Positions 4,489 through 40,810 are shown, numbered from the stretch's first letter. The stretch is 62,509 nucleotides of DNA from Chloroflexota bacterium (GCA_005889535.1 VBHC01000113.1:1-62509); one strand, 5' to 3'. Numbers and translations are program-made. The notes: generated from the sequence alone by a model not told the origin.

Positions 4489-5850
4489 ATGCTTACCAAG
4501 CGGCGCCCGGGGCGTCCTTCTACGGACGACCCCGGGGCGCCGAGTTCTCTTGGCCAACGGATTCGGCAATCCCGGCAGGCACTCGGGCTGAGCCTCGCGG
4601 CCGTAGCCGGCGACGATTTCAGCCGAGCCTTTCTCAACCAGGTCGAGCTCGGCCGCGCCCAGCCATCCACCCAAACCCTGCGCATCATTGCCCGCCGGCT
4701 CCAGCAACCAATCGACTATTTCCTTGAAGAGCCCGGTGACTCGAGCGCGGCACTGGAACTCATCCTTACCGAAGCGGAGATGAGCCTGTACCATAGCGAC
4801 GCCGGGCGTGCCGAACGACTCGTCGGCCGCATGCTGCATCGGCCCCTTCCGCTCGAGCTTCGAACCCGGGCTCAGTTGGTCCTGGGCACGGCGTTCTTGA
4901 GGCAGGGAAAGCCGGAGGCCGCCAAACCCGTGCTCGAGGAGGCAATCGAGGTCGCCGAGCGGTCGCCGTGGCCACACCTGCTCGTCGACCTCTATGACCG
5001 GCTGGGCAGTGTCTACTACCTCCTTCGCCATGCCCATGCGGCTGGCCAGTGGTTCGAGCGTGCGATCGAGCGTTACCAGTCGGCGGGCCTGAAAGACCCG
5101 GGGTTGAAGGCCCGCGTCCTGGGTCACCGGGCCAACCTCCATTACGTGGCCGGCCAGCCCACCGAGGCGATCGCGGCCTATGAATCGGCAATCGCCGCCG
5201 CCGAAGAGGTCCTGGACATGTCGGCACTCGCCGGCATCTACGAGGGACTCGCCCTTTCGCTACGGCAGACCGGGCAATACCATCGAGCGCTCGCATACGC
5301 GCAAAAGGGTCTGCGCCTTTTCGAGACGCTAAACGACGTCCGGATGACGGCACAGCTGCGCCTCAACATGGGCGACATGCTGCTGCAGCAGGGTCGCGTC
5401 ACGGAGGCCGATCGGCTCTTTTCCGAGGGTGCCGAGCACCTTCGCCGGATCGGCGACCACGAGCTCCTCCCCCATCTGGTCGTGGGCATGGCTGAGTCCG
5501 CTCTCGAATTCAAGGACCTGGAACGCGCGCAGGACCTCGTCCAACAGGCGATTGACCTGGCGGCTCGCTCGAGCGATCCGCTGGCGGCGGTGGCCGTCCA
5601 TCGGGTAGCCGGACGAATCGCCCACGCCCGAGGTCAGCGGGAAATCTCGCATCGTCACTTCGAGCGCGCGCTGGAAGTGGCGGCGTCCGTCGACAACCCT
5701 GACCTTCGAGCCCGGGTCACCTACGATTTCGCACGGGCGCTCGAGGCCGAGGGCGACAGTGCCAATGCGGCGCTCCGCTTTCGGCAAGCCTACGAGGCGG
5801 GCCGGGGCCCGGCGCCAGCTGCCGGCATGTCAAGTCCACTTGGCGCATAG
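4489..5850 (+). CDS. XRE-HTH + TPR transcriptional regulator (RRNPP-like peptide receptor candidate 1)
   Basis: N-terminal HTH_3 (GQRIRQSRQALGLSLAAVAG...FLNQVELGRAQPS) followed by tandem TPR-like helices with Asn residues (RANLHY, RLNMGD). Confidence 0.9.
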   Translation: MLTKRRPGRPSTDDPGAPSSLGQRIRQSRQALGLSLAAVAGDDFSRAFLNQVELGRAQPSTQTLRIIARRLQQPIDYFLEEPGDSSAALELILTEAEMSLYHSDAGRAERLVGRMLHRPLPLELRTRAQLVLGTAFLRQGKPEAAKPVLEEAIEVAERSPWPHLLVDLYDRLGSVYYLLRHAHAAGQWFERAIERYQSAGLKDPGLKARVLGHRANLHYVAGQPTEAIAAYESAIAAAEEVLDMSALAGIYEGLALSLRQTGQYHRALAYAQKGLRLFETLNDVRMTAQLRLNMGDMLLQQGRVTEADRLFSEGAEHLRRIGDHELLPHLVVGMAESALEFKDLERAQDLVQQAIDLAARSSDPLAAVAVHRVAGRIAHARGQREISHRHFERALEVAASVDNPDLRARVTYDFARALEAEGDSANAALRFRQAYEAGRGPAPAAGMSSPLGA

Positions 5851-5861
5851 GTAGGCCCCAC

Positions 5862-5891
5862 TTGACACGGGTTGATGCGACCAGCCATAAT
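5862..5891 (+). promoter_or_regulatory. Sigma70-type promoter TTGACA-N18-CATAAT upstream of the bldD homolog
   Basis: Read directly from the sequence. Confidence 0.65.
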
Positions 5892-5995
5892 GACGACCAC
5901 GGAAGGTGGTTTCGTTCGCGGAGAACGATCCCCCCGCCACCCTCCGCTCCGAACACGCAAAAAGTTTGGTTAGCGTCGCACCGTGCGATAGACTG

Positions 5996-6010
5996 GTCAC
6001 ACACAGTCAA
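5996..6010 (+). promoter_or_regulatory. BldD-box-like site GTCACACACAGTCAA
   Basis: One mismatch to the Streptomyces consensus NTNACNCWGNGTNAN; ends 9 nt before the bldD ATG. Confidence 0.45.
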
Positions 6011-6019
6011 GGGGGACTA

Positions 6020-6553
6020 ATGGACGGGTACTCGCGAAAAGTGGGGGCCAGGCTGCGCAGCCTACGGAAGCAGCGTGGCTTGACGCTGCAGCAAGTAGAG
6101 GTCCTCTCGAACAAGCGGCTCAAGGGCTCGCTCCTCGCCGCCTACGAGCGCGGGGACCGCAATATCTCGGTGACCCGCCTGCACCAGATCGCCACCCTCT
6201 ACAGCGTCCCGGTGAACCAGCTGCTGCCCGAAGAGATCGAAGGCGTTGGGGAGCCGGCGCTTCCGCCAAAGCTGGCGATCGACCTCAGCCAGCTGCAGGG
6301 CCTCCCCGAGCGCCAGGGATCGATCCTGGCGCGACATGTGGCCCGGCTCCAGCAGCAGCGGCAGGACTTCAACACCCCGGTCGTAACCTTCCGCAGCGAC
6401 GACCTCGAGCAACTCGCGGCCGCTTACAAGACGACCCCGGAGATGCTGCGCCGGTCCCTGAATGAGTGGGGTGTCTTCCGTCCTGGCCAGGCGCCGGGCG
6501 AGCGTCCCGAAGTCGAACGCGACATCCCGCCGGAGCCGGCCGAGAACCCCTAG
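6020..6553 (+). CDS. bldD: BldD-family transcriptional regulator (XRE HTH + c-di-GMP-binding CTD)
   Basis: YSRKVGARLRSLR...AYERGDRNISVTRL...LYSVPVNQLLP HTH; the CTD carries RQD-FNTPVVTF-RSDD (RxD-X8-RxxD). Start moved to the ATG at 6020, after a GGGGA SD. Confidence 0.85.
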   Translation: MDGYSRKVGARLRSLRKQRGLTLQQVEVLSNKRLKGSLLAAYERGDRNISVTRLHQIATLYSVPVNQLLPEEIEGVGEPALPPKLAIDLSQLQGLPERQGSILARHVARLQQQRQDFNTPVVTFRSDDLEQLAAAYKTTPEMLRRSLNEWGVFRPGQAPGERPEVERDIPPEPAENP

Positions 6554-6560
6554 GCGGACC

Positions 6561-6860
6561 CTAGAAGGGGATTTCTCCCTGAGGCGTCGAGGGCGGCTGG
6601 CCGCGCTCCGCCCGGAGCTCCGCCACCGTCGCCGGATGCGGCGCCTGTTCGTCGGGCAGCGGTGCTTCCGTCACCGGAAGGCTCTCGATCCGCTGACGGG
6701 CCTCTTCGAGCTTTCGCTCGCAGAGCTCGAGGTATTCGCGGCCGCGCGCGACCGCGCCGATCGCCTCCTCCAGGCTGAGCTTGCCTTCCTCCAGCGACCG
6801 CAGCGTCGCGTCGAGCTGCGCAAGGGCTTGCTCATACGTGATCGACTGGTCCACGCTCAT
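6561..6860 (-). CDS. xseB: Exodeoxyribonuclease VII small subunit
   Basis: TYEQALAQLD...LEEGKLSLEEAI motif; directly after xseA. Confidence 0.9.
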   Translation of the reverse strand: MSVDQSITYEQALAQLDATLRSLEEGKLSLEEAIGAVARGREYLELCERKLEEARQRIESLPVTEAPLPDEQAPHPATVAELRAERGQPPSTPQGEIPF

Positions 6861-8212
6861 GGAACGACCTGATCGACAGTGGCTTCCAGCCGTCCAGCGG
6901 AAAGCAGAACGTTGACCGGCTGCCCCTGGCGCGCCTCGAGGGCCTCCCGGATGATGCCGCCAGTCTGGCCGTCGACGCAGATGCTGTAGCCGCGCTTGAG
7001 CGTCTGTTCGGGAGCGAGAGCCGTGAGCCGAGCCGCCCGGCCCTCCAGGTTCCCCCGCCGGTCGCGAATGCCACGCTCGCCGAGTCCGATGAGCCGATCG
7101 CGTAAGCCCCCGACCTGGAGCCGCGCGCTAGCCATGCGGTGCGCGGTGGCGTCGCGAGCGCCGGTCAGGCGCCGCCGGCACTCCTGGAGCGACCGTTCCC
7201 GCTGGCGCCAGACCTCGCGCGGTTCTCGCTGACGCAGCATGCTCGTGAGATGCGCCAGCCGCTCCCTACGGCGGCTGTAAAGCTCGCCGGCCAGTCGCGC
7301 AACCGTTTGACGCCGGAGCTGCACCTGGTGCACCGGCACGATCAGCGCCGTCAGCCCGGCGCGTTGGAGTCGCTGGCCGCGCTCGCCCAGCTGCCGGCGC
7401 AGGTCGGCTTTCTTCGGCACCACGATCTCAGCAGCCGCGGTCGGCGTCCGCGCCTCGCGGTCTGCCACAAGGTCGGCGAGCGTGCGGTCCGAGGTATGAC
7501 CCAGCGCCGTGATAACCGGGATCCGCATCGTCTGGATGGCGCGCACCACGGCTTCCTGGTTGAACGCCATCAGCTCTTCGAAGCTGCCCCCACCGCGGGC
7601 CACGATGACGACATCGGCCAGGCCGTCCTGGTCACACTGCCTCAGCGCGGCCACCAGGCTGCGCTGCGACGCCGTGCCCTGCACCAGCGCCGGATAGAGG
7701 GCGAGCCGCATGTTGGGAAAGCGTTCCCAGATCGTCTGCTGCAGATCGTGGATCACAGCGCCGCTGGGCGAGGTGATGAAGGCGATGCAGCGAGGCAGGA
7801 AGGGCAACGCCCGCTTGCGGTCGGGTGCGAAGGCGCCTTCGGCCTCCAGCCGGCGCTTCAGCTGCTCGATGGCGGCCCGCAGCTTGCCGGCGCCGTCGTA
7901 ATCGAGCCGGCTGACAACCAGATTGACCCGGCCGTATTGCGCGTGGTAGTCGACCTGGCAGGTGACGACCAGCTCCTGGCCGTTTTCCGGCAGAAACGGT
8001 AGCCGCCGGGCCGTGCCGCTGAAGATCACCGCGCCCACGCTGGCCGTGGCGTCTTTGAGCGTGAACCAGACGTGCCCATTCCGAAGCGAGACCCCGCTGA
8101 CCTCGCCTTTGACCACCACGGTTTGAAAGCGAGCGGCGAGCAGGTCGTGGATCCGCGTGTTCAGCTCCAGGACCGTGAGCGGCTTGATCGCCTCCTGCGG
8201 CTGGATCGCCAT
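6857..8212 (-). CDS. xseA: Exodeoxyribonuclease VII large subunit
   Basis: OB fold (GEVSG...GHVWFTLKD), ITSPSGAVIHD, RGGGSFEEL, LGHTSD and TPTAAAE. Confidence 0.95.
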   Translation of the reverse strand: MAIQPQEAIKPLTVLELNTRIHDLLAARFQTVVVKGEVSGVSLRNGHVWFTLKDATASVGAVIFSGTARRLPFLPENGQELVVTCQVDYHAQYGRVNLVVSRLDYDGAGKLRAAIEQLKRRLEAEGAFAPDRKRALPFLPRCIAFITSPSGAVIHDLQQTIWERFPNMRLALYPALVQGTASQRSLVAALRQCDQDGLADVVIVARGGGSFEELMAFNQEAVVRAIQTMRIPVITALGHTSDRTLADLVADREARTPTAAAEIVVPKKADLRRQLGERGQRLQRAGLTALIVPVHQVQLRRQTVARLAGELYSRRRERLAHLTSMLRQREPREVWRQRERSLQECRRRLTGARDATAHRMASARLQVGGLRDRLIGLGERGIRDRRGNLEGRAARLTALAPEQTLKRGYSICVDGQTGGIIREALEARQGQPVNVLLSAGRLEATVDQVVP

Positions 8213-9613
8213 TTAGGGGACCGCCTCGGCCAGGCTCGAGTCGCGCCGGTAGAGGGCCCGTTCCACCGCCCGCCGGAGCGCATCGGCCTGCGTGGTCTCG
8301 TCGGTAAACACCCGCACCAGCGTGGTCCGGATCGGGAGCCGGCGGAAGAGCTCCGCCACGGCGCTCCGCTCGACCGCGCGGCTCACCGGGTTGTAGATGT
8401 TGACCGGGAATGGATCGTTGAAGGGATTCTGCGGTCGGGGATCGACCGACGCCAGGTCGACCTCGAAGGAGGCCTGAGCCAGCGAGGCCGGGAGCCCCTC
8501 GCGGATGCGACGGACATAGTCGGCGGGCTCCGGGTAGAGCCACGCGTCCGGTACGTTGGAAAACTCGTAATAATCCTCGAAGATCAGCCGCCATTTGAGC
8601 TCGCGACGGACGATCCGGCCCCATTCACGCGACAGCTCGGCCGCTCGGCCGCCCTCGTGCTGCCACCGGTCCACGGTGTCGATCAGCGACCAATCGGTCA
8701 GCTCCCGATACCGGTCGAGCTGGTCCAGCGGGTTGCCCGTCAGGATTCGCTCGATGGTTTCCCGGAAGATTTCCCGCATGTGCAGGTCGATGCGGCGCAC
8801 GGTCCGGTGGTAATAGATGTTGTTGTAGAGATAGAGGCGGGCATTCAGGAAGAGCAGCAAGGCCTGGGCGCCGTGCTGATGAAGCAGCAGGCCCTGCCGA
8901 TCGAGGAACGAGTAGTGGAGCAACCGCTCCAGATCGATCGGCCCCACCTTGACGCCACACATGTAGGCATCGCGCGGCACGTAGTCCAGGTTGTCCGCGG
9001 TGTACATGCCGTTGAGGATTGGCTTGAGTGCCTTAACCCAGGCCGGGACGGCCGCGCCGCTCAGCTCGGGCTCGGCGATCAGCTCCGCGATCCAGCGCGG
9101 CTCGATCCGCTCGCCCGGGGCGAAGGGGCCGCCGGGACTCGCATTGAGAGCGGCGATGGTCGAAGCCAGTTCCCCTTCGATCAGGGCGCGCCCGATCACC
9201 TCATGGTCCACGGCGAAGCGATCCAGGTAATTCTGGTCAAAGAAATGCCCGAAGGGTCCGTGACCGACGTCGTGGAGCAGCCCGGCTACCCGTAAGGTCT
9301 CCTCGACGCAGGCGGACGAGGGAACGTCCGGCACCAGGGCCTTCAGGTTGGCGTAGAGCTGTCGAGCCCAGTTGCCGCTCAGATGCATTGCCCCCAGCGC
9401 ATGCTGGAAGCGGGAATGCTCGCCGCCGGGGAACACCCACCAGGCGGATTGCAGCTGATGGATCCGGCGCAGCCGCTGCAGCCAGGGATGGTCCAGCAGA
9501 TCCTGTTCTGCTGCTACGCTCTCACCGCGCACCCGCTTGGTGATCTTGATGTAGCCGTGCAGCGGATCGGCGACGAGATTGACCGCGTCGTATTGCCGGG
9601 CGAGATCGTTCAC
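8213..9613 (-). CDS. HD-domain phosphohydrolase (dNTP triphosphohydrolase/YdhJ-like)
   Basis: HSRFQHALG, LLHDVGHGPFGH and DNLDYVPRD motifs. Confidence 0.85.
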   Translation of the reverse strand: MNDLARQYDAVNLVADPLHGYIKITKRVRGESVAAEQDLLDHPWLQRLRRIHQLQSAWWVFPGGEHSRFQHALGAMHLSGNWARQLYANLKALVPDVPSSACVEETLRVAGLLHDVGHGPFGHFFDQNYLDRFAVDHEVIGRALIEGELASTIAALNASPGGPFAPGERIEPRWIAELIAEPELSGAAVPAWVKALKPILNGMYTADNLDYVPRDAYMCGVKVGPIDLERLLHYSFLDRQGLLLHQHGAQALLLFLNARLYLYNNIYYHRTVRRIDLHMREIFRETIERILTGNPLDQLDRYRELTDWSLIDTVDRWQHEGGRAAELSREWGRIVRRELKWRLIFEDYYEFSNVPDAWLYPEPADYVRRIREGLPASLAQASFEVDLASVDPRPQNPFNDPFPVNIYNPVSRAVERSAVAELFRRLPIRTTLVRVFTDETTQADALRRAVERALYRRDSSLAEAVP

Positions 9614-9641
9614 GAGTTCGGCAACATTTTAATGACGTAGC

Positions 9642-10844
9642 ATGAGTTCGATGGAGACGGCTGTCATTGTCGATGCGCTGCGCACGCCAATCGGCCGCTA
9701 CGGTGGTGCCCTGAAAGACGTCAGACCCGACGACCTCGCGGCACTCGTCGTGCTCGAAGCGGTTCAGCGCAACGCGCTCGATCCCGCCGGCATCGAGGAC
9801 GTCTACTTCGGTGATGCGAACCAGGCCGGGGAGGACAACCGGAATGTGGCGCGCATGGCCGTTCTCCTTGCCGGGCTGCCGGTTGAGATCCCGGCGGCCA
9901 CGATGAACCGGCTGTGCGGCTCAGGGATGCAAGCGGTGGTCGCGGCCACGCGCGAAATCGAAACGGGCAATGGCGATTGCTTCCTCGCGGGTGGGGTGGA
10001 GAGTATGACGCGCGCCCCCTACATCCTCGAGAAACCGCCGCGCGAGTTCTCGAGGGGCAGCCAGACGCTGCACGATAGCACCCTGGGCTGGCGAATGATC
10101 AATCCGCGGCTGGCGGAGAAATATCCGCCGATCAGCCTGGGCCAGACCGCTGAAGTGGTGGCCCGCCGCTACGGCATCACCCGGGAGGCTCAAGACCGAT
10201 GGGCGCTGGAGAGCCATCAAAAAGCGGTCGCGGCGCAGCAGGCGTGTCATTTCCGCGCCGAGCTCGTACCAGTCGCGGTGCCGGCGGGCGCCGCGTTCGA
10301 CAAGGACGAAGGTCCGCGGGCGGACACCAGCCTGGAAAAGCTGGCCGCGCTGAAGCCGGCCTTCGAAAAGGACGGAACGGTGACGGCCGGCAACTCATCC
10401 TCGCTCAATGATGGCGCGGCGTCCCTGGTGATGATGTCGGCGTCGCGGGCGCAGCGGCTCAATGCTCGGCCGATCGCCCGGATCCTGGCTGCAGCCAGCG
10501 CGGGCGTCGACCCATCCTGCATGGGCCTGGGGCCGATTCCGGCGTCGCGCAAAGCGCTGACACGAGCCGGACTGCGGGCGAGCGACATGGACGTCATCGA
10601 GCTGAACGAGGCGTTCGCCTCCCAGGTCATCGCCTGCGTTCGGGACCTCGAGCTCGACCCTCAGCGCGTCAATCCGAACGGCGGCGCGATCGCGCTGGGC
10701 CACCCGCTGGGCGCGAGCGGCGTGCGGATCATCGCCACCCTTGTCCACGAGCTCGCCCGGCGCAAGGCCCGCTACGGGCTGGCCACGATGTGCATTGGTG
10801 TCGGCCAGGGGATCGCCACCGTCGTCGAAAACCTCGCCCGCTGA
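9642..10844 (+). CDS. Acetyl-CoA C-acyltransferase (thiolase, PcaF/PaaJ-like)
   Basis: [18 protein letters not shown] and MCIGVGQG catalytic motifs. Confidence 0.93.
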
Positions 10845-10851
10845 TGGGTTT

Positions 10852-10882
10852 CCCTCCCCCTCTGGGGGAGGGTAGGGTGGGG
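10852..10882 (+). repeat. REP-like palindromic element, copy 1
   Basis: CCCTCCCCC-TCT-GGGGGAGGG-TAGGGTGGGG; 30/31 identical to 20082-20112. Confidence 0.8.
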
Positions 10883-10974
10883 ACGTCAACCCGGCGCGGC
10901 ACGCCTGTCAAGGGATTGCGACTCGCCTTTTCACCGTCTACTACGGGCCCTCCGGGATGATGTGAGCGAGACCG

Positions 10975-11754
10975 TTGAGGCTCCCAATGGGTGGTATCGG
11001 ACGACGCTTGCTCGCGGTCGCCATCGCATCCGCGATGGGGCTCGTGCCGTTGACTGCCGCCGCCTCGATCGACAACGCGCAGGCCGATGCCTTGTGGAAC
11101 CAGCCGCAGAGCGTCAGCGCCGATAGCGCGTTCTATATGGTCCAGGCGTGGTGGGATGGCATTGCTCGGGCTATGCAGGGCGACCCGACCCAGCGGGGCC
11201 TCGATGAGCTAGCCCAGGCGAATTCGGATCTGCTGAGTGTGCACGCCCTGCTTCTGCAGCAGCGCACCGACCCGGGACCGCACCCGGTCGCTGTCGTCGA
11301 CCCTTTGCTCGCCAGCATCTACAACGTCATCACCGGATCCAACGCGAAAGCACCGGTCGGGTCGGTCTTCAGCTGGATCAACCAGTCGTTGCTGAAACTG
11401 GAGGGCCGCGGATCGACGGATGACATCGTTCGGGTCTTACTCAAGGACTACCAGGCAAAACAGACGGCAGCCGAGCGGGATCTGCGTCCGACCTCGGGGC
11501 TCGATACCGACGCGCTCTTGACGGCGAACGCACAACGGGTGACTGCGTTCTTGCCGAAGATCAAGGCCCTCTCCAGCCCTGACGATGGGCTCGCTGACCT
11601 GCTCCACGACGTCGATCAATCGACCACCGCCGTTGCCGCCCGGCACCACGGCAATGGGGACGGCGGGGGCCAGGCCAATGGCAACGGCAATGCCAATGGA
11701 AACGCAAATGCCAATGGGAGCGGCAAGCACGTGACGCCAAAGCCGAAGAAATAG
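10975..11754 (+). CDS. Secreted hypothetical protein (DUF5667-like) with an Asn/Gly/Ala-rich tail
   Basis: Signal peptide (AAA|S), helical body and GNGNANGNANANG tail. The family call is tentative. Confidence 0.6.
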   Translation: MRLPMGGIGRRLLAVAIASAMGLVPLTAAASIDNAQADALWNQPQSVSADSAFYMVQAWWDGIARAMQGDPTQRGLDELAQANSDLLSVHALLLQQRTDPGPHPVAVVDPLLASIYNVITGSNAKAPVGSVFSWINQSLLKLEGRGSTDDIVRVLLKDYQAKQTAAERDLRPTSGLDTDALLTANAQRVTAFLPKIKALSSPDDGLADLLHDVDQSTTAVAARHHGNGDGGGQANGNGNANGNANANGSGKHVTPKPKK

Positions 11755-11771
11755 AGCCGGCGGGCTCTGGC

Positions 11772-12122
11772 TTAGGCTTCTTCCTCGTCCTGCACGCCGT
11801 CCAGGGTCAACATCAGACCGTCCTGGAGGTCGTACAGCGCATCCATCGAGTCCGCGATCGTCAGGTCCTCCGGGGCTCGATTGCCGAGCGGATGCTCCAT
11901 CTCCGCGGTCAGCCGCTGGACTCGGAGCGCCAGGTCGGCCGGCAGCTGCGTTTCCTCAGCGATGTTCAGCATCTCGAGCTCATCCAGAAGGCGGTCGATG
12001 TGCCGGATTCGGTTCCGGCGGGCATAGCGCAACTCACGCTCCGCGTGCCACCGCTCGCGAAGCGCTGAAATCTGGACCGAGGTCTGCTCGATCATGCGCC
12101 CGCTTCCGAGGGTCCGAGCCAT
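11772..12122 (-). CDS. Hypothetical helical protein (paralog of 58700-59005)
   Basis: Near-gapless alignment to the 58700 ORF; has its own promoter. Confidence 0.65.
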   Translation of the reverse strand: MARTLGSGRMIEQTSVQISALRERWHAERELRYARRNRIRHIDRLLDELEMLNIAEETQLPADLALRVQRLTAEMEHPLGNRAPEDLTIADSMDALYDLQDGLMLTLDGVQDEEEA

Positions 12123-12137
12123 GCTTCCCGAACGACT

Positions 12138-12209: not shown

Positions 12210-13166
12210 ATGGCACTGAAGCGCCACTCGCGTGGGGCGACGCCCCGAGCGCCACTCGCGTCGGCCGGCGGGCCGGCCGGCTACGCGCTGATCCTTGTTT
12301 CCGCCTTCTTGTTCGCCGCTGGCGGCAACGTCGTCAAGGCCTTATTCAGGCTCGGGTACTCGCCGCTTGTGCTGGCGCAGTTGCGCATCTGGTCGGCCTT
12401 TCTCGGGCTCTTCCTTTCACTGTTGGTGATCCGGCCGTCCCTGCTTTTAGTGGCCCGAAGTGAACTTCCGTCCCTGGCCATCTTCGGCGGCGTTGGTCTG
12501 GCCGGGGTTCAGCTCAGCTATTACCTGACGATCTCCCGCATCAACATTGCGGTGGCGCTGCTCGTGCAGTACCTGGGGCTGGTCGCGGTGACCGCCTTTG
12601 AACGCTACCGCCGCCAGCAAGAGGTCGGCGTCCAGGTCTGGGCCGCGCTCGCGATGGTGCTGATCGGCGCCTTCTTCGCGGTCGGCGCCTACCAGCCGGC
12701 GCTCCTGCGCGTTAACCTGCCGGGTGTCATGCTGGGCCTGGTGTCAGCCGGGTTTTTTGCCTTCTACATCCTGCGAGCCTCGACCCTGGCGCGACGGCTC
12801 AACACCTGGACCATCCTGCTCTACGGCTTCGGCGCGGGCAGCGTGCTGTGGGCGGCCTTCGATGCTGCGAGCGGCACCGGACTGCCGGCGGACCTGCGCA
12901 TCTGGGTCGTAATGGCGCTGATCGGTCTTGTTGGCACGCTGCTGGCACACGGCCTCTTTGTGATGGCGCTGCGCACGGTCCGCCCGTCGACGGCTGGCAT
13001 CATCGCCACCGCCGAGCCCGTCTTCGCCGGCCTGATCGCCTACCTCGTGCTCGGCGATCGCCTGCAGCCGCTTCAGGTCCTGGGGGCGGCGGTCATCGTC
13101 GCTGGAATCATCGCCGTGCAAGCCGGCCATCGCACCGGTGCCGTCACCGCACCGCCCATCCAGTGA
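12210..13166 (+). CDS. EamA/DMT family transporter
   Basis: About 10 TMs in two EamA repeats; AGIIATAEPVFA motif. Confidence 0.9.
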   Translation: MALKRHSRGATPRAPLASAGGPAGYALILVSAFLFAAGGNVVKALFRLGYSPLVLAQLRIWSAFLGLFLSLLVIRPSLLLVARSELPSLAIFGGVGLAGVQLSYYLTISRINIAVALLVQYLGLVAVTAFERYRRQQEVGVQVWAALAMVLIGAFFAVGAYQPALLRVNLPGVMLGLVSAGFFAFYILRASTLARRLNTWTILLYGFGAGSVLWAAFDAASGTGLPADLRIWVVMALIGLVGTLLAHGLFVMALRTVRPSTAGIIATAEPVFAGLIAYLVLGDRLQPLQVLGAAVIVAGIIAVQAGHRTGAVTAPPIQ

Positions 13167-13927
13167 GCTTCGACCTCGAGCGGGTCACATCCCAATTGGT
13201 GACCGGAGAGATCAGTTGGTCGCTGCACTATGAGCCCGAATGCGAGAGCACCCAGGACCTGGCTCGAGAGGCGGTGGCCGGCGGGGCCGCGCCCGGATGG
13301 ACGGTGACGACCGACCTGCAGCGTCACGGCCGCGGCCGCCGGGGGCGGTCATGGACGGCGCCGGTGGGTCAGGCGCTCCTCTTCTCGACCGTACTGCAAC
13401 CCCCAGTCGATGTGCTTCCGCTGCTGCCGTTGCTCGCCGCGGTCACGGTGGCGGGCGGCGTCGAGCTATCCACGGGAGCGGCCCCGGAGTTGAAGTGGCC
13501 GAACGACGTGCTCCTGAACGGCAAGAAATTGGCCGGCATCTTGTTGGAGCGCCCGCCTGGTTCGCTGGTGGTCCTTGGCGTCGGCCTGAACGCTAACCAG
13601 TCCGCCCCCGAGCTTCTCGAAGGAGCGACTTCGCTGGCGGTCGAGGTCGGCCATCCGGTCAACCGTGAGGACGTATTGGCCGCGATCCTCAACGATCTCA
13701 GCAACGCCTATGAGCGCGCCGATCGGGAGGGCGTGGATTGGATCCTGCCCGGCTGGCGCAGCCGAACCTCCATGCTCGGGAAACCCGTCACCTTCCGCCG
13801 CGACGGCGTGCTGCAGCACGGCCTGGCCGAGGATGTCGGCATCGATGGCGCGCTACTCATGCGCACCGCGGATGGAAGCCGGCTCAGCGTCGTGGCGGGC
13901 GACGTGGATCTGGTCCGGCCGGATTAG
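13163..13927 (+). CDS. birA: Biotin--[acetyl-CoA carboxylase] ligase (no HTH domain)
   Basis: STQD, QRHGRGRRGRSW, KWPNDVLLNGKKLAGIL and GVGLN motifs. GTG start in a GTGA overlap with the EamA stop. Confidence 0.92.
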   Translation: MSFDLERVTSQLVTGEISWSLHYEPECESTQDLAREAVAGGAAPGWTVTTDLQRHGRGRRGRSWTAPVGQALLFSTVLQPPVDVLPLLPLLAAVTVAGGVELSTGAAPELKWPNDVLLNGKKLAGILLERPPGSLVVLGVGLNANQSAPELLEGATSLAVEVGHPVNREDVLAAILNDLSNAYERADREGVDWILPGWRSRTSMLGKPVTFRRDGVLQHGLAEDVGIDGALLMRTADGSRLSVVAGDVDLVRPD

Positions 13928-25971: not shown

Positions 25972-26493
25972 CTATTTCTTCTGGCCTGCTGGTACCGTGC
26001 TGCCGATCTGCTTCTGCTCGCCGTTTCCGCTGGCCGTTCCGCCGCTGATCGGGATCTTCACGGACTTCGGCTTGGCCGGCTGGGCCTTCGGCACGGTCAG
26101 GATCAACATGCCATTCACGAACTGCGCGCGGGCCTGTTCGCCGACGGCGTCCTCGGGTAGGGTGACCTGCCGGCTGAACTTCCCGTAGAAGTTTTCGCGC
26201 AGCCAGTAGCTCTCGGGCTGAATGCCGGCCGGCGGCATGATCTCGCCCTTGATATTGATCTGCCCGCCATCGAAGGTGACATCGACAGTGCTCGGGTCCA
26301 CCCCCGGGACGGCGGCCCGGACCACCCATTCCCTGTCGGTCTGGTAGACGTCCAGGGGCAGGTAACCCTCACCGACCGCGCCGACTGTTCTCGAGTGGCC
26401 GGGAACGCCGAAAGTATCGCCGAACAGGCGGTCCATGGCGCTGTGCAGCGACATCAGATCCGTGATTGGTGACCAACGAATCACGTTGCTCAT
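25972..26493 (-). CDS. Hsp20/alpha-crystallin small heat shock protein
   Basis: PLDVYQT...AAVPGV...RE..YGKFSRQVTLP...NGMLILTVPK. Confidence 0.93.
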   Translation of the reverse strand: MSNVIRWSPITDLMSLHSAMDRLFGDTFGVPGHSRTVGAVGEGYLPLDVYQTDREWVVRAAVPGVDPSTVDVTFDGGQINIKGEIMPPAGIQPESYWLRENFYGKFSRQVTLPEDAVGEQARAQFVNGMLILTVPKAQPAKPKSVKIPISGGTASGNGEQKQIGSTVPAGQKK

Positions 26494-26662
26494 GGCTGAC
26501 CTCCTTCGTTGAGTTGTTTTCGTTCGCCCATATACCCCCTGACGGGGACGTGTTAAACGCTCGCGGGATGGTCGAAACGGGCCTGTTTACACTCGGTGAA
26601 GATGCGTAACCAGGGCCGCAATGCCGGTATATACTGGTCAGATTCTTTAGCCGGGGAGACGC

Positions 26663-27646
26663 ATGCTTACCAGCATCAAGTCGGTCGGCAGCTACGTTCC
26701 GTCCGGCATCTTGACGAACGCCGACCTCGAAAAGATGGTCGAGACGTCGGATACATGGATTCGCGACCGCACCGGCATCGTTGAGCGCCGGATCGCCGCC
26801 GTCAACGAGACCGCCACCGACCTCGCCGCGGAAGCGGCGAAGGACGCGCTGGCCGCGGCGGGACTGCGCCCCCAGGATACGGACCTGATCGTTTCGAGCA
26901 CATCCACCCCGGACTCGATGTTCCCCTCGGTCGCATCGCGGGTGCAGGAGCGGCTGGGGGCCCACGGCCCGGCCTTCGACGTGCAGGCAGCCTGCACCGG
27001 CTTCCTCTACGCGATGAGTGTGGCCGACCGTTTCGTCAGCGGCGGCGAGGCGAAGCAGGCGATCGTGATCGGCAGCGAGACGCTCACCAAGATCATCAAC
27101 TTCAAGGACCGCGGCACCTGTGTCGTCTTCGGTGACGGCGCGGGCGCGGTGGTGCTGGGGCCGGGCGTCAATGGCGCCGGCATCAAGTCCTGCGTGCTCG
27201 GATCCGACGGCTCCGGCGGTGACCTTATCTATGTCGCGCCCGGCGCCGATGGCCCCGAGGGCCCGGGCCGTCCGGAGATCCGGATGGACGGGCGAAAAGT
27301 CTTCCGCTTCGCCACGGAGATCCTGGCCCAGGCGACACTCCAGGCGTTGGAGAAGGCCAACGTCCGGCTGGAGGACGTCAAGCTGATCGTCCCCCACCAG
27401 GCCAACGCCCGCATCATCGAAGCGGCCGGCAAGCGGCTTGGCGTTGGCGGGGACGTCATGGTCAACGGGATTGCGTCCTACGGCAACACGTCGACGGCGT
27501 CGATACCGCTGGCGCTCAAGGATGCACTGGCCGCGGGCCGGCTGAAAACTGGTGACCACCTGGTGCTCGTCGGGTTCGGCGCCGGACTGACCTGGGGGGC
27601 TTGCGTGATCGAGTGGGAAGGCGCGCCCGTAAGGGTCGCGGCCTAA
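26663..27646 (+). CDS. fabH: 3-oxoacyl-ACP synthase III
   Basis: AACTGF, FGDGAGA, PHQAN, GNTSTASIP and GFGAGLTWG motifs. Confidence 0.95.
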   Translation: MLTSIKSVGSYVPSGILTNADLEKMVETSDTWIRDRTGIVERRIAAVNETATDLAAEAAKDALAAAGLRPQDTDLIVSSTSTPDSMFPSVASRVQERLGAHGPAFDVQAACTGFLYAMSVADRFVSGGEAKQAIVIGSETLTKIINFKDRGTCVVFGDGAGAVVLGPGVNGAGIKSCVLGSDGSGGDLIYVAPGADGPEGPGRPEIRMDGRKVFRFATEILAQATLQALEKANVRLEDVKLIVPHQANARIIEAAGKRLGVGGDVMVNGIASYGNTSTASIPLALKDALAAGRLKTGDHLVLVGFGAGLTWGACVIEWEGAPVRVAA

Positions 27647-31190: not shown

Positions 31191-33299
31191 ATGGAACCTG
31201 CCGAATCCCGTTGCCCGGCGTGTCGATATCGACTCAAGCCCGACAGTCGATATTGCTCCGCGTGTGGCCGTCGGGTCGTGGCAGGCCCCCGCCGGCTCCA
31301 GTTCCGATCCTGGATGGTGCCGCCCGCGATCTTTCTGGCGGTCCTGCTCGTGGTTCTCCCGGGGATGCTCTACGTCTGGGCCGGCCTCCCCTCGACCTCC
31401 AACCTGAGCACAGCCCGCCTGCCACTTTCGACTCGCATCTATGACCGAACCGGGACCATCCTGCTGGCGGAGATCCACCAAGGTTCCGAGCGGCGGCACA
31501 TCGTGCCGCTGAGCCAGGTCGCCCCCTCGATGCGAGAGGCCACGATCGCCGTGGAAGACCGCACCTTCTACCAGCATGGCGGTCTGAACCTGCTGCGCAC
31601 CGGGCAGGCGGGCCTCGACGATCTGATCCATCTCCGGCTGAACCAGGGCGGCAGCACCATCACCCAGCAGCTGGTGAAAAACATCTACCTGTCGGGGGAT
31701 CGGGCCGTGCTGCGCAAGTTGGACGAGGCGATTCTGGCGGTCGAGATCGAGCACCAGTACTCGAAGTCGCAGATCCTGGAGGCCTACCTGAACCGGATTT
31801 ACTACGGGAACCAGTCCTATGGCGTCGAGGCAGCAGCCCAGACCTACTTCGGGAAAACCGCCCATCAGCTGTCTCTATCGGAGGCGGCACTGCTCGCCGG
31901 ACTCCCCCAGGCACCAACGGCGCTGGATCCGTTCAGCAACCTCAACGGCGCGAAGGCGCGGCAGCGAGTCGTGCTGGACGCCATGGTCAAGGCAGGAGAA
32001 ATCACAACCGCCCAGGCACAGTCCGCCTTCGCCCAGCCGCTCACGCTGCAAAAACCAACCTCGGCGGACGACGTCAAGGCGCCCGGATTCGTCCACTGGG
32101 TGGCCGCCCAGGTGGAAAAGACCTATGGGGAGGAACTCCTCAAGAACGGCGGCCTGACCGTGATCACCTCGCTCGACTGGAACCTTCAATCGATCGCAGA
32201 ACAGCAGGTGCGGGAAAAAGTGGCGGCCCTGCAGCGGCAGCACGTCACCGATGGTGCGCTGGTTGCGGTCGACCCGAAGTCGGGTGCCGTGCTGGCCATG
32301 GTCGGGTCAGCCGGGCCGGACGTGCCGGGCGGCCAGTACAACATGGCCATCATTCCGCGCCAGCCGGGTTCCGCCTTCAAGATGTTTACCTACACCGCCG
32401 CGATCGAGTCCGGCAAATTCACGATGGGCTCCTGGATCGACGACTCGCCGGTGCAGATTCGCCTCGCGGATGGCAGCACCTACACGCCGCGCAACTATGA
32501 CGGCAGTTTCCACGGCTGGCAGCCGATTCCCTTCGCCCTCGGGAATTCGCTCAACGTCCCCGCCGTCAAGGTGGAGATGGGAACCGGCGTCGACCGGGTC
32601 GTCGACGTCGCTCGCCGGATGGGCGTGGAAACCCTGACGCAGCCCGCCAGCGCCTACCAGCCCAGCCTGACGCTCGGCGGCTACGAGGTGCCGCTGATCG
32701 ATATGGCGGCCGGGGCCAGCACCCTGGCGGCGCAGGGGACCTACCGCCATCCGCAAGCGATCCTGAAGATCATGGCGCACGATGGCACCACGCTCTATCG
32801 GTACGCCGAGGGCAAGGGCAAGGCGGCCCTGACCCCGCAGGTCAGTTTCATCATGGCGGATATGTTGTCCAATGACCGCAATCGATCCCTCGAGTTCGGC
32901 CGCAACAGCGACCTCGTCATCCCCGGACATCACGTCGCGGCCAAGACGGGGACCACCAACGACTTCCGCGACAACCTGACGGTCGGGTTTACACCGAATC
33001 TGGCCGTGGCGGTCTGGGTCGGCAATGCCGATCACACGCCGATGCGCAACGTGAGCGGCATCGTGGGCGCGGCCCCGATCTTCCACGGCTTCATGACGCA
33101 GGTGCTCAACGGCCAGCCGGACAGCTGGTACGCCGTGCCCGACGGGCTGCATGCCGTCGGCATGAATGGCTACACCGCCTACCTGCTCCCCGGGACCGAG
33201 CAACTGGCGCAGTCGCAGCAGCCGCCACCCTCACGGTGTGAAGAGGGTTGCGGGGGTGGAGGCGACAACGGGGGCGGCCGCCACAAAAAGCACGGCTAG
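31191..33299 (+). CDS. Class A penicillin-binding protein with an N-terminal zinc ribbon
   Basis: CPAC...CSACG; TM; glycosyltransferase motifs (EDRTFYQH, GGSTITQQLVKN, RKLDE); transpeptidase motifs (SAFK, SLN, KTGT). Confidence 0.93.
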   Translation: MEPAESRCPACRYRLKPDSRYCSACGRRVVAGPRRLQFRSWMVPPAIFLAVLLVVLPGMLYVWAGLPSTSNLSTARLPLSTRIYDRTGTILLAEIHQGSERRHIVPLSQVAPSMREATIAVEDRTFYQHGGLNLLRTGQAGLDDLIHLRLNQGGSTITQQLVKNIYLSGDRAVLRKLDEAILAVEIEHQYSKSQILEAYLNRIYYGNQSYGVEAAAQTYFGKTAHQLSLSEAALLAGLPQAPTALDPFSNLNGAKARQRVVLDAMVKAGEITTAQAQSAFAQPLTLQKPTSADDVKAPGFVHWVAAQVEKTYGEELLKNGGLTVITSLDWNLQSIAEQQVREKVAALQRQHVTDGALVAVDPKSGAVLAMVGSAGPDVPGGQYNMAIIPRQPGSAFKMFTYTAAIESGKFTMGSWIDDSPVQIRLADGSTYTPRNYDGSFHGWQPIPFALGNSLNVPAVKVEMGTGVDRVVDVARRMGVETLTQPASAYQPSLTLGGYEVPLIDMAAGASTLAAQGTYRHPQAILKIMAHDGTTLYRYAEGKGKAALTPQVSFIMADMLSNDRNRSLEFGRNSDLVIPGHHVAAKTGTTNDFRDNLTVGFTPNLAVAVWVGNADHTPMRNVSGIVGAAPIFHGFMTQVLNGQPDSWYAVPDGLHAVGMNGYTAYLLPGTEQLAQSQQPPPSRCEEGCGGGGDNGGGRHKKHG

Positions 33300-33330
33300 C
33301 GATCGGCCGTGGGAAAACGCGCCGGCCCGG

Positions 33331-33753
33331 TTACGTCTGCCCGCGACCTCGTCCCGGCGGATTCGCCGGTGAGCTCTCGGAAGAACCACGCATGCCTTCG
33401 AGCTGGCGACTGAGTTCCGCAACCTGGCGCTCCAGGTTCTCGACCTGCTCCCGGGTCGCGAGCGGCATCCTGGCGCTCCGCACCCCCTCCTGGACGCGCC
33501 GACCCAGGTCTTCCCCAGCGCGCCGCGTCCGAGAGGCAAAGTCGTCGAAACGCCGGCGGCTCTCATCGCCGCTCGTCCGTCCCTGGTGCAGCCAGTTATG
33601 GGCCATCTCATCGGTCTTTTCGAACGCCCAACTGGCAGCCCCCAGCATCGTGTAGAAGCCGTCGCGGATCACCTCGCGGACACGCTCGGTTCCTTCCGAC
33701 TCGCGGTTCTCCGACGTCCCTGCCGGTTTCTGCGTCGAGTGTTGGTCTGCCAT
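33331..33753 (-). CDS. Phasin-like (PhaF/PhaI-type) coiled-coil protein
   Basis: LGAA...E....W..QG.. pattern and ATREQVENLERQVAEL tail. Confidence 0.6.
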   Translation of the reverse strand: MADQHSTQKPAGTSENRESEGTERVREVIRDGFYTMLGAASWAFEKTDEMAHNWLHQGRTSGDESRRRFDDFASRTRRAGEDLGRRVQEGVRSARMPLATREQVENLERQVAELSRQLEGMRGSSESSPANPPGRGRGQT

Positions 33754-33773
33754 GCGCTAAGTTTAGGGCGCCG

Positions 33774-38243
<4,470 letters not shown>

Positions 38244-38248
38244 GGAGC

Positions 38249-38280
38249 AAAAAAAAAGGCGCTTGCCCATTGCAAGCGCC
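38249..38280 (-). terminator. Intrinsic terminator of propeptide gene 2
   Basis: On the minus strand, GGCGCTTGC-AATGG-GCAAGCGCC followed by T9, 20 nt after the peptide stop. Confidence 0.85.
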
Positions 38281-38300
38281 CTCCAAGCCCCGGAACCGAT

Positions 38301-38381
38301 TTAGCGAGGACCAGGCAAGCTGTCGGCCACGGCGAGCACAGCGGCGACGACGGTGGCGATAATCGCGAACATCCGGTACAT
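38301..38381 (-). CDS. Putative secreted signalling propeptide (26 aa, MYRMFAIIATVVAAVLAVADSLPGPR)
   Basis: AAGGAGGG SD, ATG start, signal-peptide pattern with an A-V-A site, its own terminator, and a TTGACA upstream. Divergent from the HTH-TPR gene. Confidence 0.85.
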   Translation of the reverse strand: MYRMFAIIATVVAAVLAVADSLPGPR

Positions 38382-38432
38382 GGGCACCCTCCTTCTGGGT
38401 GGACCGGGTGCCCCGACCAGCTCAGCCGGTAT

Positions 38433-38459
38433 TTAACACCCGGTTCAATTTGGTGTCAA
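38433..38459. promoter_or_regulatory. Inverted repeat TTAACACC-N11-GGTGTCAA, candidate operator overlapping the -35 of the peptide gene
   Basis: 7/8 inverted match in the divergent intergenic region. The right arm reads TTGACA on the minus strand. Confidence 0.55.
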
Positions 38460-38507
38460 TATACTTTCCGCGACCTGGTTTAGCCAAGCTATACTCGGAG
38501 GCAGCTG

Positions 38508-39800
38508 ATGAACTCGGTGGGAGAGCGTCTTCGCGAGGCGCGCCTGGCCAGGGGCCTCACTCAGGAACAGCTCGCCCGGGGACTAGCAACCAAGGGATTC
38601 ATCAGCCAGGTGGAGCGCAACCACGCGACCCCGTCTCTCCCCAAACTTCGCGTGATCGCCGAGCGATTGGGGCAGCCGCTTTCCTTCTTCGTGACCGATC
38701 GTCCTCCGCAACTCTTGACCCTCCTTCGCAAAAGCGCCCAACTGGCGGTTCGCGCGGAAGATCCCGCTCACGCGCTGGACATCCTGGCGGAGGCGACCGA
38801 CCTGCCGGCGACGGCGAATGAGCGCGCCGATCTTCAACGGATTCGGGGCATTGCCCTTTCTGAGTTACGCCGAAATCCAGAGGCCCTTTCGACATTGCAG
38901 GACGCCGCCGCGACGGCTCCGATCGACGATGCGGAGCTGAACGCCGCGATCTATTCGGAAATCGGCACGGTCCTGCAGATCGAGGAGCGATTCAACGCCG
39001 CCATCGAAGCCAACCGACGGGCGCTCGATTGGCTCGACCGCTGCCGCCACGCCGATCCCGCGCTGCGCGCCCGGGTCCTGACCAACCTGGGAAGCAGTAG
39101 CTTCCGGCTGGGCCAGCACGCCGAAGCGATGGCCTACTTCGTCCGCGCCCTGGACGCCGCGACCGACGCCGAGAGCCTGCTACGGATCGCCAACGCCCAC
39201 ATGGCGCTGGGGGTGGCGGCCCGGGCGGTCGGTGAGCTCGACCGGGCCATCGAACATTGCAATCGGGCCCTGGAGCTCCACTCTCGGATCCATCACGAGC
39301 GGACCGCCAACCGGATCCTCAACAACCTGGGCGACGTCCATTACGCGGCCGGACGCAAGCGACAAGCGGCCGCGTTCCAGCGACGCTGCCTGGAGCGCGC
39401 GCGCGAACTCCACGACGACTTCGAGATCGGGGTCGCCGCTGGGGCGCTGGCTCGCTATGCCCTCGAGGACGGCAAGTTCGGGGACGCCCTGGTCCTGGCC
39501 CGCGAAAGTCAGCAGGCGGCCGGTCGATCCGGCGACCACCTCCATCAGGCCATCGCGGCGGCAGTGGAAGGCGCAGCCGCGGACCGCCTTGGCCGGCGCC
39601 GGCTGGCGAACCAACGCTTCACCCAAGCCCTGCAGATCCTTTTCGAGCGCAGCGCCGCCGGCGAGCTCGCCGAGGTTTGCACGATGTACGCCGATGTCCT
39701 GCGCCGACGTGGCCAGGACGACCGCGCCTTCGCCTTCATGCGAATGGCGGCCGAGCGCGATTTTCGCAAACTGGCCGCCCTCCTCAAGACGGGCAGGTAA
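38508..39800 (+). CDS. XRE-HTH + TPR transcriptional regulator (RRNPP-like peptide receptor candidate 2)
   Basis: GERLREARLARGLTQEQLA...FISQVERNHATPS HTH; TPRs with Asn residues (LTNLG, IANAH, LNNLG); paralog of 4489-5850. Confidence 0.9.
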   Translation: MNSVGERLREARLARGLTQEQLARGLATKGFISQVERNHATPSLPKLRVIAERLGQPLSFFVTDRPPQLLTLLRKSAQLAVRAEDPAHALDILAEATDLPATANERADLQRIRGIALSELRRNPEALSTLQDAAATAPIDDAELNAAIYSEIGTVLQIEERFNAAIEANRRALDWLDRCRHADPALRARVLTNLGSSSFRLGQHAEAMAYFVRALDAATDAESLLRIANAHMALGVAARAVGELDRAIEHCNRALELHSRIHHERTANRILNNLGDVHYAAGRKRQAAAFQRRCLERARELHDDFEIGVAAGALARYALEDGKFGDALVLARESQQAAGRSGDHLHQAIAAAVEGAAADRLGRRRLANQRFTQALQILFERSAAGELAEVCTMYADVLRRRGQDDRAFAFMRMAAERDFRKLAALLKTGR

Positions 39801-39802
39801 TC

Positions 39803-40810
39803 ATGCCGTCCGCCAGAGGGATCAACGACTCGGCCACTGCCGTGCTGGTCGCCGTCGACGACCAGTCCGACGAGCGCGAGGTGCGCGCCATCCTGGAGAG
39901 CGCCGGCCACCGGGTGCTCACCGCCGCCGACGGCGCGGCCGCCCTGCGCATACTCTCGGCGCATCAGTGCGACCTCGTTCTCTGCGAAGCCGTGCTATCC
40001 GACATGGATGGCTTCGAAGTTTGCCGGGCGATCAAGCAGGCGCCCGCGACCCGCCAGATTCCGGTGCTGCTCTTGCTGGCCAGCGACGATGACGTCCAGC
40101 GCGAGCGGGCCCTTCAGGCGGGCGCGGACGATGTTGTCATCAAGCCGGTGGAGCGCACCCTGCTGCTGACGCTGGTGCGCGGCCAGCTACGGCTCGCCCG
40201 ATTGGACGACCAGGTCCACGACCTCGAGGGTCTTGTCATGACGCTCGCCCGCGCCGTCGAGGATCGCGAGCAGAGTAGTGCGGGGCTGGCGGAGAAAGTT
40301 GCCCACTGGGCGACCCAGCTCGGCAGCGCCATTCAACTGCAGGATGATCAGCTGACGCTGCTCTACAAGGCCGCCTTGCTTCACGACGTCGGCACGCTGA
40401 GCGTCCCGGTCGATGTGCTCTCAAAGGGAGGTCGCCTGGACCCCGCAGAGTTCAGCCAGGTGAAGCGACACCCGGTTGTCGGCGAGCAGATCCTTGGCGC
40501 ATTGCCGCGCTCGGATCAACTGCTGCCGGCCGTTCGTCACCATCACGAGCGAGTAGACGGCGCGGGCTACCCGGACGGGCTCGGCGGTGATGACATTCCC
40601 ATGTTTGCTCGGATCATCGCCATCGCGGATGCCTTCGTCGCGATGACGAGCGATCGCCCGTATCGCGGCAGGCTTTCACGCGCGGAGGCGGTCGGCATCC
40701 TGCGGCAGGGCGCCGGGAAGCAATGGGATGCCGCCCTGGTCGAGCGATTCTTACCGCTCATCGAGAAGACGGACGTCGAGAGCGCCTCCCAGGCTCAAAC
40801 CGCCGGGTAG
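39803..40810 (+). CDS. RpfG-like REC + HD-GYP cyclic-di-GMP phosphodiesterase (atypical receiver)
   Basis: REC fold (DLVLCEAVLSDMDG...KPV); LLHDVG, HHHERVDGAGYPDGL, ADAF and DRPYR motifs. Starts 2 nt after the TPR gene stop. Confidence 0.9.
   Translation: MPSARGINDSATAVLVAVDDQSDEREVRAILESAGHRVLTAADGAAALRILSAHQCDLVLCEAVLSDMDGFEVCRAIKQAPATRQIPVLLLLASDDDVQRERALQAGADDVVIKPVERTLLLTLVRGQLRLARLDDQVHDLEGLVMTLARAVEDREQSSAGLAEKVAHWATQLGSAIQLQDDQLTLLYKAALLHDVGTLSVPVDVLSKGGRLDPAEFSQVKRHPVVGEQILGALPRSDQLLPAVRHHHERVDGAGYPDGLGGDDIPMFARIIAIADAFVAMTSDRPYRGRLSRAEAVGILRQGAGKQWDAALVERFLPLIEKTDVESASQAQTAG

Follow-up and report, generated by a model that had tools for sequence, protein, structure and literature searches.

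Does a peptide signal reporting population density set the level of cyclic di-GMP (c-di-GMP), and thereby the activity of a BldD-type developmental repressor, in an uncultured soil bacterium? The question is raised by a DNA stretch of 62,509 nt (GCA_005889535.1 VBHC01000113.1:1-62509; hereafter the window) with a G+C content of 65%, which is deposited under Chloroflexota and whose source organism is treated here as a member of Candidatus Dormibacterota rather than Chloroflexota. The window encodes two putative peptide receptors, R1 and R2, each combining an XRE-type helix-turn-helix (HTH) domain with tetratricopeptide repeats (TPR). Each receptor gene has a small open reading frame (ORF), pep1 or pep2, on its upstream side and a gene predicted to act in c-di-GMP signalling on its downstream side, namely a bldD homologue behind R1 and a gene for a receiver (REC) fused to an HD-GYP domain behind R2. 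An initial annotation, made from the sequence alone, had proposed that a peptide signal could gate a c-di-GMP/BldD developmental or dormancy switch. We assign a probability of roughly one half to the reading that the two paralogous pep/receptor cassettes feed c-di-GMP control through R2/HD-GYP dosage and through BldD.

The coupling of R2 to the REC-HD-GYP gene is strong, being operonic, conserved and recurrent. The R2 gene (38508..39800, plus strand) is predicted to encode a protein of 430 amino acids (Pfam HTH_3/HTH_19, TPR_12), and its stop codon (TAA, 39798-39800) is followed after a gap of 2 nt by the start codon (ATG, 39803) of the REC-HD-GYP gene (39803..40810, plus strand; Response_reg and HD_5, 137 bits), just as the initial annotation had described. 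Since the corresponding stop and start codons overlap by 4 nt in 26 of the 36 orthologous loci, R2 and the REC-HD-GYP gene almost certainly form one translationally coupled operon. The operon ends at a convergent MobA-like gene (40795..41403, minus strand; Pfam NTP_transf_3). An ORF at 40723-41652 on the plus strand was rejected as a third operon gene, being a shadow of this MobA-like gene.

Divergently from R2 lies pep2 (38301..38381, minus strand), a 26-aa ORF read from the sequence as MYRMFAIIATVVAAVLAVADSLPGPR, which carries its own Shine-Dalgarno sequence and is followed by an intrinsic terminator (38254..38284, minus strand; 13-bp stem, then a T run). The intergenic control region of 126 nt (38382..38507) contains the pep2 promoter TTGACA-17-TTAAAT on the minus strand as well as a -10 element TATACT for R2, and shows strongly conserved blocks in an alignment of 20 sequences. 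Due to the translational coupling of the HD-GYP gene to R2, the dosage of the predicted phosphodiesterase would change if R2 autoregulated the pep2/R2 region.

The HD and HHExxDGxGYP motifs of the enzyme (LLHDVG, HHERVDGAGYP, DRPYR) are invariant in 35 orthologues. The best match of the HD-GYP domain among PDB sequences is the cGAMP-specific enzyme 5z7c of Vibrio cholerae (E 6e-32), and substrate differences among HD-GYP enzymes are known, so that the REC-HD-GYP protein might act on something other than c-di-GMP, for instance as a 3'3'-cGAMP phosphodiesterase, or serve as a non-catalytic adaptor, in which case locus 2 would stand outside a BldD circuit. We consider this very improbable given that the next PDB matches, 4r8z and 4mcw, are c-di-GMP phosphodiesterases, that the top NCBIfam match is "response regulator c-di-GMP phosphodiesterase, NosR family", that all catalytic residues are invariant and that the genome encodes 14 GGDEF domains.

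In the receiver of the same protein in the window, the acceptor position, which aligns with D53 of PleD, is occupied by Glu and the conserved Thr is replaced by Leu, so that this REC domain lacks both the Asp acceptor and the Thr/Ser of the phosphorylatable receivers in RpfG-type regulators. Across the orthologues Asp, Glu, Gln or Ala are found at the acceptor position, whereas the REC domains in the receptor/HD-GYP arrays of another family (see below) keep the normal Asp. Judging from these residues, the receiver in the family of the window is drifting toward a pseudo-receiver. The loss of the phospho-acceptor in many orthologues makes control by a histidine kinase unlikely and fits a control by enzyme amount; the HD-GYP enzyme is thus probably governed by its dosage and not by a histidine kinase.

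The second c-di-GMP-related gene encodes the BldD homologue (6020..6553, plus strand; identified by Pfam, NCBIfam and PDB alignment). Its start most likely lies at ATG 6020, which is the best start and is preceded by the Shine-Dalgarno sequence AAGGGGGA. The protein shares the two-domain build of the Streptomyces BldD-(c-di-GMP)4 complex (PMC4151990). Its N-terminal part (residues 3-70) corresponds to the BldD DNA-binding domain in 2ewt/4ob4 (57 bits, E 2e-14; Pfam HTH_31, HTH_3), and its C-terminal part matches BldD-like_C PF21179 with 70.4 bits at a cut-off of 27. Within the latter, RQD-FNTPVVTF-RSDD aligns column for column with RGD-x8-RQDD in the structures 4oay/5khd of the Streptomyces BldD C-terminal domain; the domain of the homologue also aligns to 4oaz. 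This corresponds to the motif RxD-x8-RxxD, which was defined together with a contact by Lys84 (PMC4151990), and the phosphate-contacting Lys is retained as part of PPKL. By this alignment, none of the residues known to hold tetrameric c-di-GMP is missing from the homologue, which would be expected to bind it; the initial annotation was therefore correct in placing a BldD homologue with an intact c-di-GMP signature (RQD-x8-RSDD) behind R1. Of 44 distinct BldD sequences from Dormibacterota, 43 contain the motif, as do all 42 BldD homologues fetched from Nitriliruptoria/Actinomycetota.

Scored against the NCBIfam model for BldD (NF050110), the protein reaches 145 bits and stays under the equivalog cut-off of 250, and is hence regarded as a homologue and not as an annotated equivalog. 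It also differs from Streptomyces BldD in its occurrence in Dormibacterota instead of Actinomycetota, in an acidic, Pro-rich C-terminal tail, and in the peptide/HTH-TPR cassette and the structured leader that precede its gene. The idea that the tail is a pheromone mimic, as its segment DIPPEPA fits the pattern [D/E]xxPxP, was rejected because the orthologues keep only (E)RPE(V/I)E.

The cassette preceding bldD consists of pep1 (4361..4447, plus strand), a 28-aa ORF VRRFLNPWVLIVIAAAVLSCAEVWPNPL with the Shine-Dalgarno sequence GGAGGT, and of R1 (4489..5850, plus strand), which starts 41 nt downstream of pep1 and encodes a regulator of 453 amino acids (Pfam HTH_3/HTH_31, TPR_12, TPR_MalT) sharing 26% identity with R2. 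The cassette is bordered by a tRNA gene (4123..4196, minus strand; Rfam tRNA, 66.7 bits). Upstream of the pep1 promoter a palindrome TTACGGAATCCGTTAC (4257..4272, plus strand), which is conserved across the genus, represents a candidate receptor operator.

Directly after the R1 stop codon lies the bldD promoter P1, TTGACA-18-CATAAT (5862..5891, plus strand), which agrees with the consensus at 11 of 12 positions and is conserved in the window's genus (g1) and in the related genera g15, g16 and g17. It is followed by a leader of about 125 nt containing a conserved two-tier hairpin with a C-rich bulge (5900..5946, plus strand). According to RNAalifold (11 sequences from four genera) compensatory double changes occur at four of the hairpin's 17 pairs, and the bulge is complementary to the bldD Shine-Dalgarno sequence; the hairpin occurs only in the R1-linked bldD genes of g1, g15, g16 and g17. 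An assignment of the leader to a known riboswitch was rejected, as no Rfam match was found at the gathering threshold or at E<=1.

Between the hairpin and bldD, 10 nt before the ATG, a pattern scan detected TCACACACAGTCA (5997..6009, plus strand), a match to the BldD-box consensus TNAC-N5-GTNA (PMC4151990), which is conserved in the alignment. The match suggests an autoregulation comparable to that in Streptomyces. The window contains five matches compared with 5.5 expected by chance, and genome-wide the intergenic count for the N5 spacing (30) is no higher than the counts for the control spacings N3, N4, N6 and N7 (33-54); we rely only on the conserved site ahead of bldD. Two more intergenic matches within the window total, which is at chance level, are located at 12417-12429, between the ORFs 11772-12122 (minus strand) and 12848-13927 (plus strand) and overlapping a small ORF at 12281-12481, and at 26587-26599, between the ORFs 25972-26493 (minus strand) and 26663-27646 (plus strand).

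The question whether the neighbourhood of receptors and c-di-GMP genes exceeds chance was addressed in the genome containing the window, an assembly of 2.77 Mb that is 81% complete and in which about 2,730 ORFs were called. The genome encodes the 14 GGDEF domains, at least 12 HD-GYP domains and one BldD, and c-di-GMP genes thus account for about 1% of its genes, which is likewise the chance for any given downstream neighbour. As only three XRE-HTH/TPR receptors of the R1/R2 type are present, finding a c-di-GMP gene downstream of both R1 and R2 has a chance probability of about 1e-4. This estimate was made post hoc, and the conservation of synteny is hence the better test.

The proposal of the initial annotation depended on conserved neighbourhoods, and both pairings turned out to be conserved across the whole family in which each occurs. 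R1 precedes bldD in all 22 loci of the window's genus with enough flank and also in the genera g15, g16, g17 and g218, i.e. in every one of the family's five genera; R1 identities amount to 57-66% in those four genera and to 57-95% across all orthologues upstream of bldD. R2 is followed by the REC-HD-GYP gene in 36 of 36 orthologous loci with flank from the genera g1, g15, g16 and g17, at identities down to 55-57%; R2 is absent from genus g218. The peptide ORFs are retained along with their receptors. pep1 is present in 19 of 19 examined loci of the genus and pep2 in 20 of 23, two of the three exceptions having incomplete flanks, and both occur in g15, g16 and g17. The BldD C-terminal domain itself is confined to the window's family, represented by eight genomes in a phylum sample of 401.

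A direct action of R1 on bldD, as envisaged by the initial annotation, finds no sequence support. The palindrome at the pep1 promoter occurs a single time in the genome at up to two mismatches and is not found at the bldD promoter, and the conserved blocks of the pep2/R2 region likewise have one genome occurrence each, none of them at bldD. A shared operator joining R1 to the bldD promoter was rejected on these grounds, and bldD possesses its own promoter, leader and BldD box. As no terminator was found between R1 and bldD, read-through transcription from R1 into bldD is possible; the coupling of the two genes is conserved and may reflect such read-through or an indirect link.

The same observations allow the interpretation that the adjacency of R1 and bldD is inherited synteny without regulatory coupling, the pep1-R1 cassette having been inserted at a tRNA-proximal spot and having stayed there, so that only R2 and the HD-GYP gene constitute a functional unit. 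Besides the strong promoter, leader and box of bldD and the missing operator, receptor-less BldD copies speak for it. Genus g218 carries two BldD copies (L121, 919-4898; L132, 1-2055), of which copy 1 is flanked by tRNA or UDG on one side and by xseB-xseA-HD on the other, with no receptor; the tRNA matching that of the window lies directly upstream of it, without a cassette in between. Two metagenomic BldD homologues (59-60% identity) have the same setting, again without a receptor, and the xseBA-HD flank is also found in the window. This site between tRNA or UDG and xseBA is the ancestral bldD site. Furthermore, the Dormibacterota clade of the BldD tree is a polytomy that does not separate one origin of the R1-BldD pairing from two, and a single ancestral event could account for all pairs.

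This interpretation nevertheless appears rather unlikely. The R1-bldD pair persists in five genera despite a divergence of R1 to 57% identity, no terminator separates the genes, and c-di-GMP genes are recurrent neighbours of the receptor family. In addition, the second BldD copy of g218 lies elsewhere, in the order pep, R1-like gene, BldD2, stand-alone HD-GYP gene and gene for a PilT-type ATPase (T2SSE), so that an R1-like gene and a BldD occur together in a different context and are followed by an HD-GYP gene.

The association extends to distant receptors. Among receptors with only about 26% identity to R2, the arrangement pep, HTH-TPR, REC-HD_5 was found in another family, where two genera carry it (L222, with a gap of 15 nt, and L224), while one receptor of the window's own genus (L089) is preceded by a pep ORF and followed by a gene for a membrane PAS-GGDEF-EAL protein. 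A c-di-GMP enzyme is therefore encoded immediately downstream in 3 of 23 surveyed loci of such other receptors, compared with about 1% expected; at a fourth locus (L216) it lies 3.7 kb away. The recurrent association of the receptor family with c-di-GMP genes is real. The neighbourhood of other paralogues is different. R2 paralogues of about 52% identity (L078, 2750-3511; L079, 3162-3983) have their own peptide ORF of 25-30 aa and are then followed by a BTAD/SARP-type regulator, and the paralogues named after a third receptor paralogue, R3, are followed by unrelated genes, which indicates that c-di-GMP is not the only output of these receptors.

A neighbourhood of bldD and HD-GYP genes also exists in other lineages. 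At the BldD loci of Nitriliruptoria/Actinomycetota (L172-L214) a membrane HD-GYP gene is located about 2.1-2.8 kb downstream, with one opposite-strand gene in between, in 13 of the 21 loci with enough flank; none of the loci L172-L214 contains an HTH-TPR receptor gene. BldD-type genes are thus linked to genes of c-di-GMP turnover in two phyla.

Whether the receptors respond to peptides has to be judged from the pep ORFs and from the receptor fold. Conserved peptide genes adjoin every receptor group and follow a common plan: the N-terminus is basic, the core hydrophobic, and an acidic residue precedes a Pro-containing, lineage-variable tail ([D/E]-x-x-P). The counterpart of pep1 in genus g218, MRKWLITIAFLGVSLLVGTAGIWPAPF, is a variant ending in GIWPAPF. 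At the locus of an R3 paralogue (L082, about 3775-4000) the DNA upstream of an R1-like gene encodes a 74-aa precursor that has a Sec-type signal peptide and contains (E/D)(V/I)IWPN twice. This motif is the same as that of the pep1 tail, and its tandem occurrence speaks for the C-terminal motif as the functional part; the protein resembles a pheromone precursor of the multi-copy kind.

The AlphaFold2 model of R2 (pLDDT 89.8) displays an HTH followed by a TPR superhelix of 18 paired helices. A Foldseek search with the model ranked the eukaryotic LGN/Pins first, followed by Rap (4gyo, 4i1a, 8rsv, 6t3h) and PlcR-PapR (3u3w), the latter two at E values of about 1e-7 and query TM-scores of 0.45-0.68. 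At the sequence level R1 and R2 match generic TPR proteins, and the similarity to PlcR/ComR is confined to the HTH. Some receptor orthologues were labelled "quorum sensing regulator NprR" by the JGI pipeline. The genome furthermore encodes six Opp-type solute-binding proteins (SBP_bac_5, OppA-type), which are a precondition for re-import only. Taken by their appearance and organisation, the pep/receptor loci resemble RRNPP cassettes, from which we infer peptide sensing.

Alternatively, the pep ORFs could encode small membrane proteins or anchors instead of pheromones and the HTH-TPR proteins could answer another cue, which would keep the link to c-di-GMP without reporting density. The ORFs consist essentially of one transmembrane helix with a short tail and have no homology to known pheromone precursors, neither a processing protease nor an exporter is encoded within the pep/receptor loci, and descriptions of RRNPP systems are limited to Bacillota and the mobile elements of Bacillota (PMC10075063, PMC9765709). 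We regard this explanation as unlikely. Against it stand the conserved charged N-terminus, hydrophobic core and variable [D/E]-x-x-P tail, the tandem repetition of the WPN motif in the R3 precursor with its Sec-type signal peptide, the likeness of the TPR fold in the R2 model to the peptide-binding Rap and PlcR, and the encoded Opp-type binding proteins.

In the circuit that we prefer, the signal acting on R2 would most likely be the processed C-terminal part of exported pep2, bound in the TPR groove. By acting on the divergent pep2/R2 promoter region, R2 would set the amount of phosphodiesterase; a change in peptide level would thus be passed on through R2 to the HD-GYP dosage, c-di-GMP would fall and BldD would leave its DNA. 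BldD would read a c-di-GMP pool that is set by the 14 GGDEF and at least 12 HD-GYP proteins, and would probably repress its own gene through the BldD box. R1 might provide a second input at bldD, either through read-through transcription or through a shared regulon. In this scheme the direction of regulation and a developmental or dormancy output are putative.

The switch suggested by the initial annotation is upheld in part. In its favour stand the conserved synteny, the recurrence among distant paralogues, the neighbouring peptide ORFs and the diguanylate cyclases encoded in the genome. On the other side, several of the observations given above count against the circuit: the absence of a shared R1 operator at bldD, the near-consensus promoter and long structured leader that bldD has of its own, the receptor-less BldD copies of g218 and of the metagenomic contigs, the paralogues with other downstream genes, LGN/Pins as best fold match of R2, the restriction of the sequence similarity between both receptors and known RRNPP receptors to the HTH, and the cGAMP-specific enzyme as closest PDB sequence of the HD-GYP domain. 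The wider generalisation that Dormibacterota employ peptide pheromones and RRNPP-like HTH-TPR receptors to set c-di-GMP through HD-GYP or, in some lineages, GGDEF-EAL enzymes and thereby switch a BldD-type repressor is more tentative, and we hold it to be possible but on balance doubtful. If true, it would represent a density-gated developmental or dormancy switch outside Bacillota and Actinomycetota.

Quorum sensing that acts on c-di-GMP is known in principle, while the parts and their combination found here are new. In the classical RpfC/RpfG system of Xanthomonas, which senses the diffusible signal factor, a cell-to-cell signal leads to c-di-GMP degradation by a REC-HD-GYP protein. A REC-HD-GYP protein is proposed as converter of a cell-to-cell signal in the window as well. 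In RpfC/RpfG, however, the signal is a fatty acid and a membrane histidine kinase phosphorylates the REC domain, whereas in the window the enzyme is predicted to be co-transcribed with a cytoplasmic HTH-TPR regulator, and many orthologues have Glu, Gln or Ala at the REC acceptor position. Given the HTH-TPR partner and the lost acceptor, control would be transcriptional or by dosage here, unlike in RpfC/RpfG. The initial annotation had regarded its combination of peptide sensing and c-di-GMP modules as undescribed, which holds for this particular combination but has to be restricted in view of the RpfC/RpfG precedent for quorum sensing into c-di-GMP via REC-HD-GYP. In Vibrio cholerae a density-dependent transcription factor (HapR/LuxO regulon) changes how strongly HD-GYP and GGDEF genes are expressed and thus the c-di-GMP pool. 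There, small-molecule autoinducers are sensed at the membrane, the target genes are dispersed and the effectors are VpsT/VpsR, in contrast to BldD in the window.

With the RRNPP(A) systems of Bacillota (NprR-NprX, PlcR-PapR, Rgg-SHP, Rap-Phr) the window shares an HTH and TPR receptor beside a small propeptide gene, the divergent or co-directional layout known from Rgg/SHP, short hydrophobic peptides in which a conserved acidic residue precedes a variable tail, and the fold similarity to Rap and PlcR. The differences concern the phylum, the restriction of sequence homology to the HTH, the canonical TPRs (TPR_12 type) and the neighbouring output genes, which are c-di-GMP genes. Two large surveys of RRNPP systems report none for Dormibacterota or Chloroflexota, and c-di-GMP is mentioned in neither of them (PMC10075063, PMC9765709). 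Among the papers listed in our literature search as naming both RRNPP and c-di-GMP, none describes a cassette of a receptor and a c-di-GMP gene. BldD has been placed in sporulating actinomycetes (PMC4151990); a literature search yielded no paper joining BldD with Dormibacterota, and none of the top results for BldD together with Chloroflexi, Chloroflexota or AD3 contained BldD.

Quorum sensing by a receptor plus propeptide has so far been described only in Bacillota and control by BldD and c-di-GMP only in actinomycetes. The soil bacteria of Candidatus Dormibacterota are abundant and uncultured, and next to nothing about their regulation has been established. If the circuit were confirmed, three signalling paradigms would be extended to a new phylum and connected with each other, and a handle on the decision between growth and persistence in Dormibacterota would be gained. 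The conserved coupling of pep/receptor and c-di-GMP genes represents a concrete testable circuit, as its four proteins and two peptides are small enough for reconstitution in Escherichia coli.

Concerning the source of the sequences, near-identical loci of one family (L136-L171) carry discordant NCBI organism labels, namely Chloroflexi, Dormiibacterota, Acidoferrum, Binatus, Eisenbacteria, Limnocylindria and Actinomycetes, and the source names of these metagenome-assembled genomes are hence unreliable. The region 2-4 kb upstream of the pep1-R1 cassette, which itself lies between the tRNA gene and bldD, combines a lower G+C content (0.595) with small unrelated ORFs; together these features upstream of pep1-R1 (neighbourhood of 4123-4447) hint at a possible insertion hotspot.

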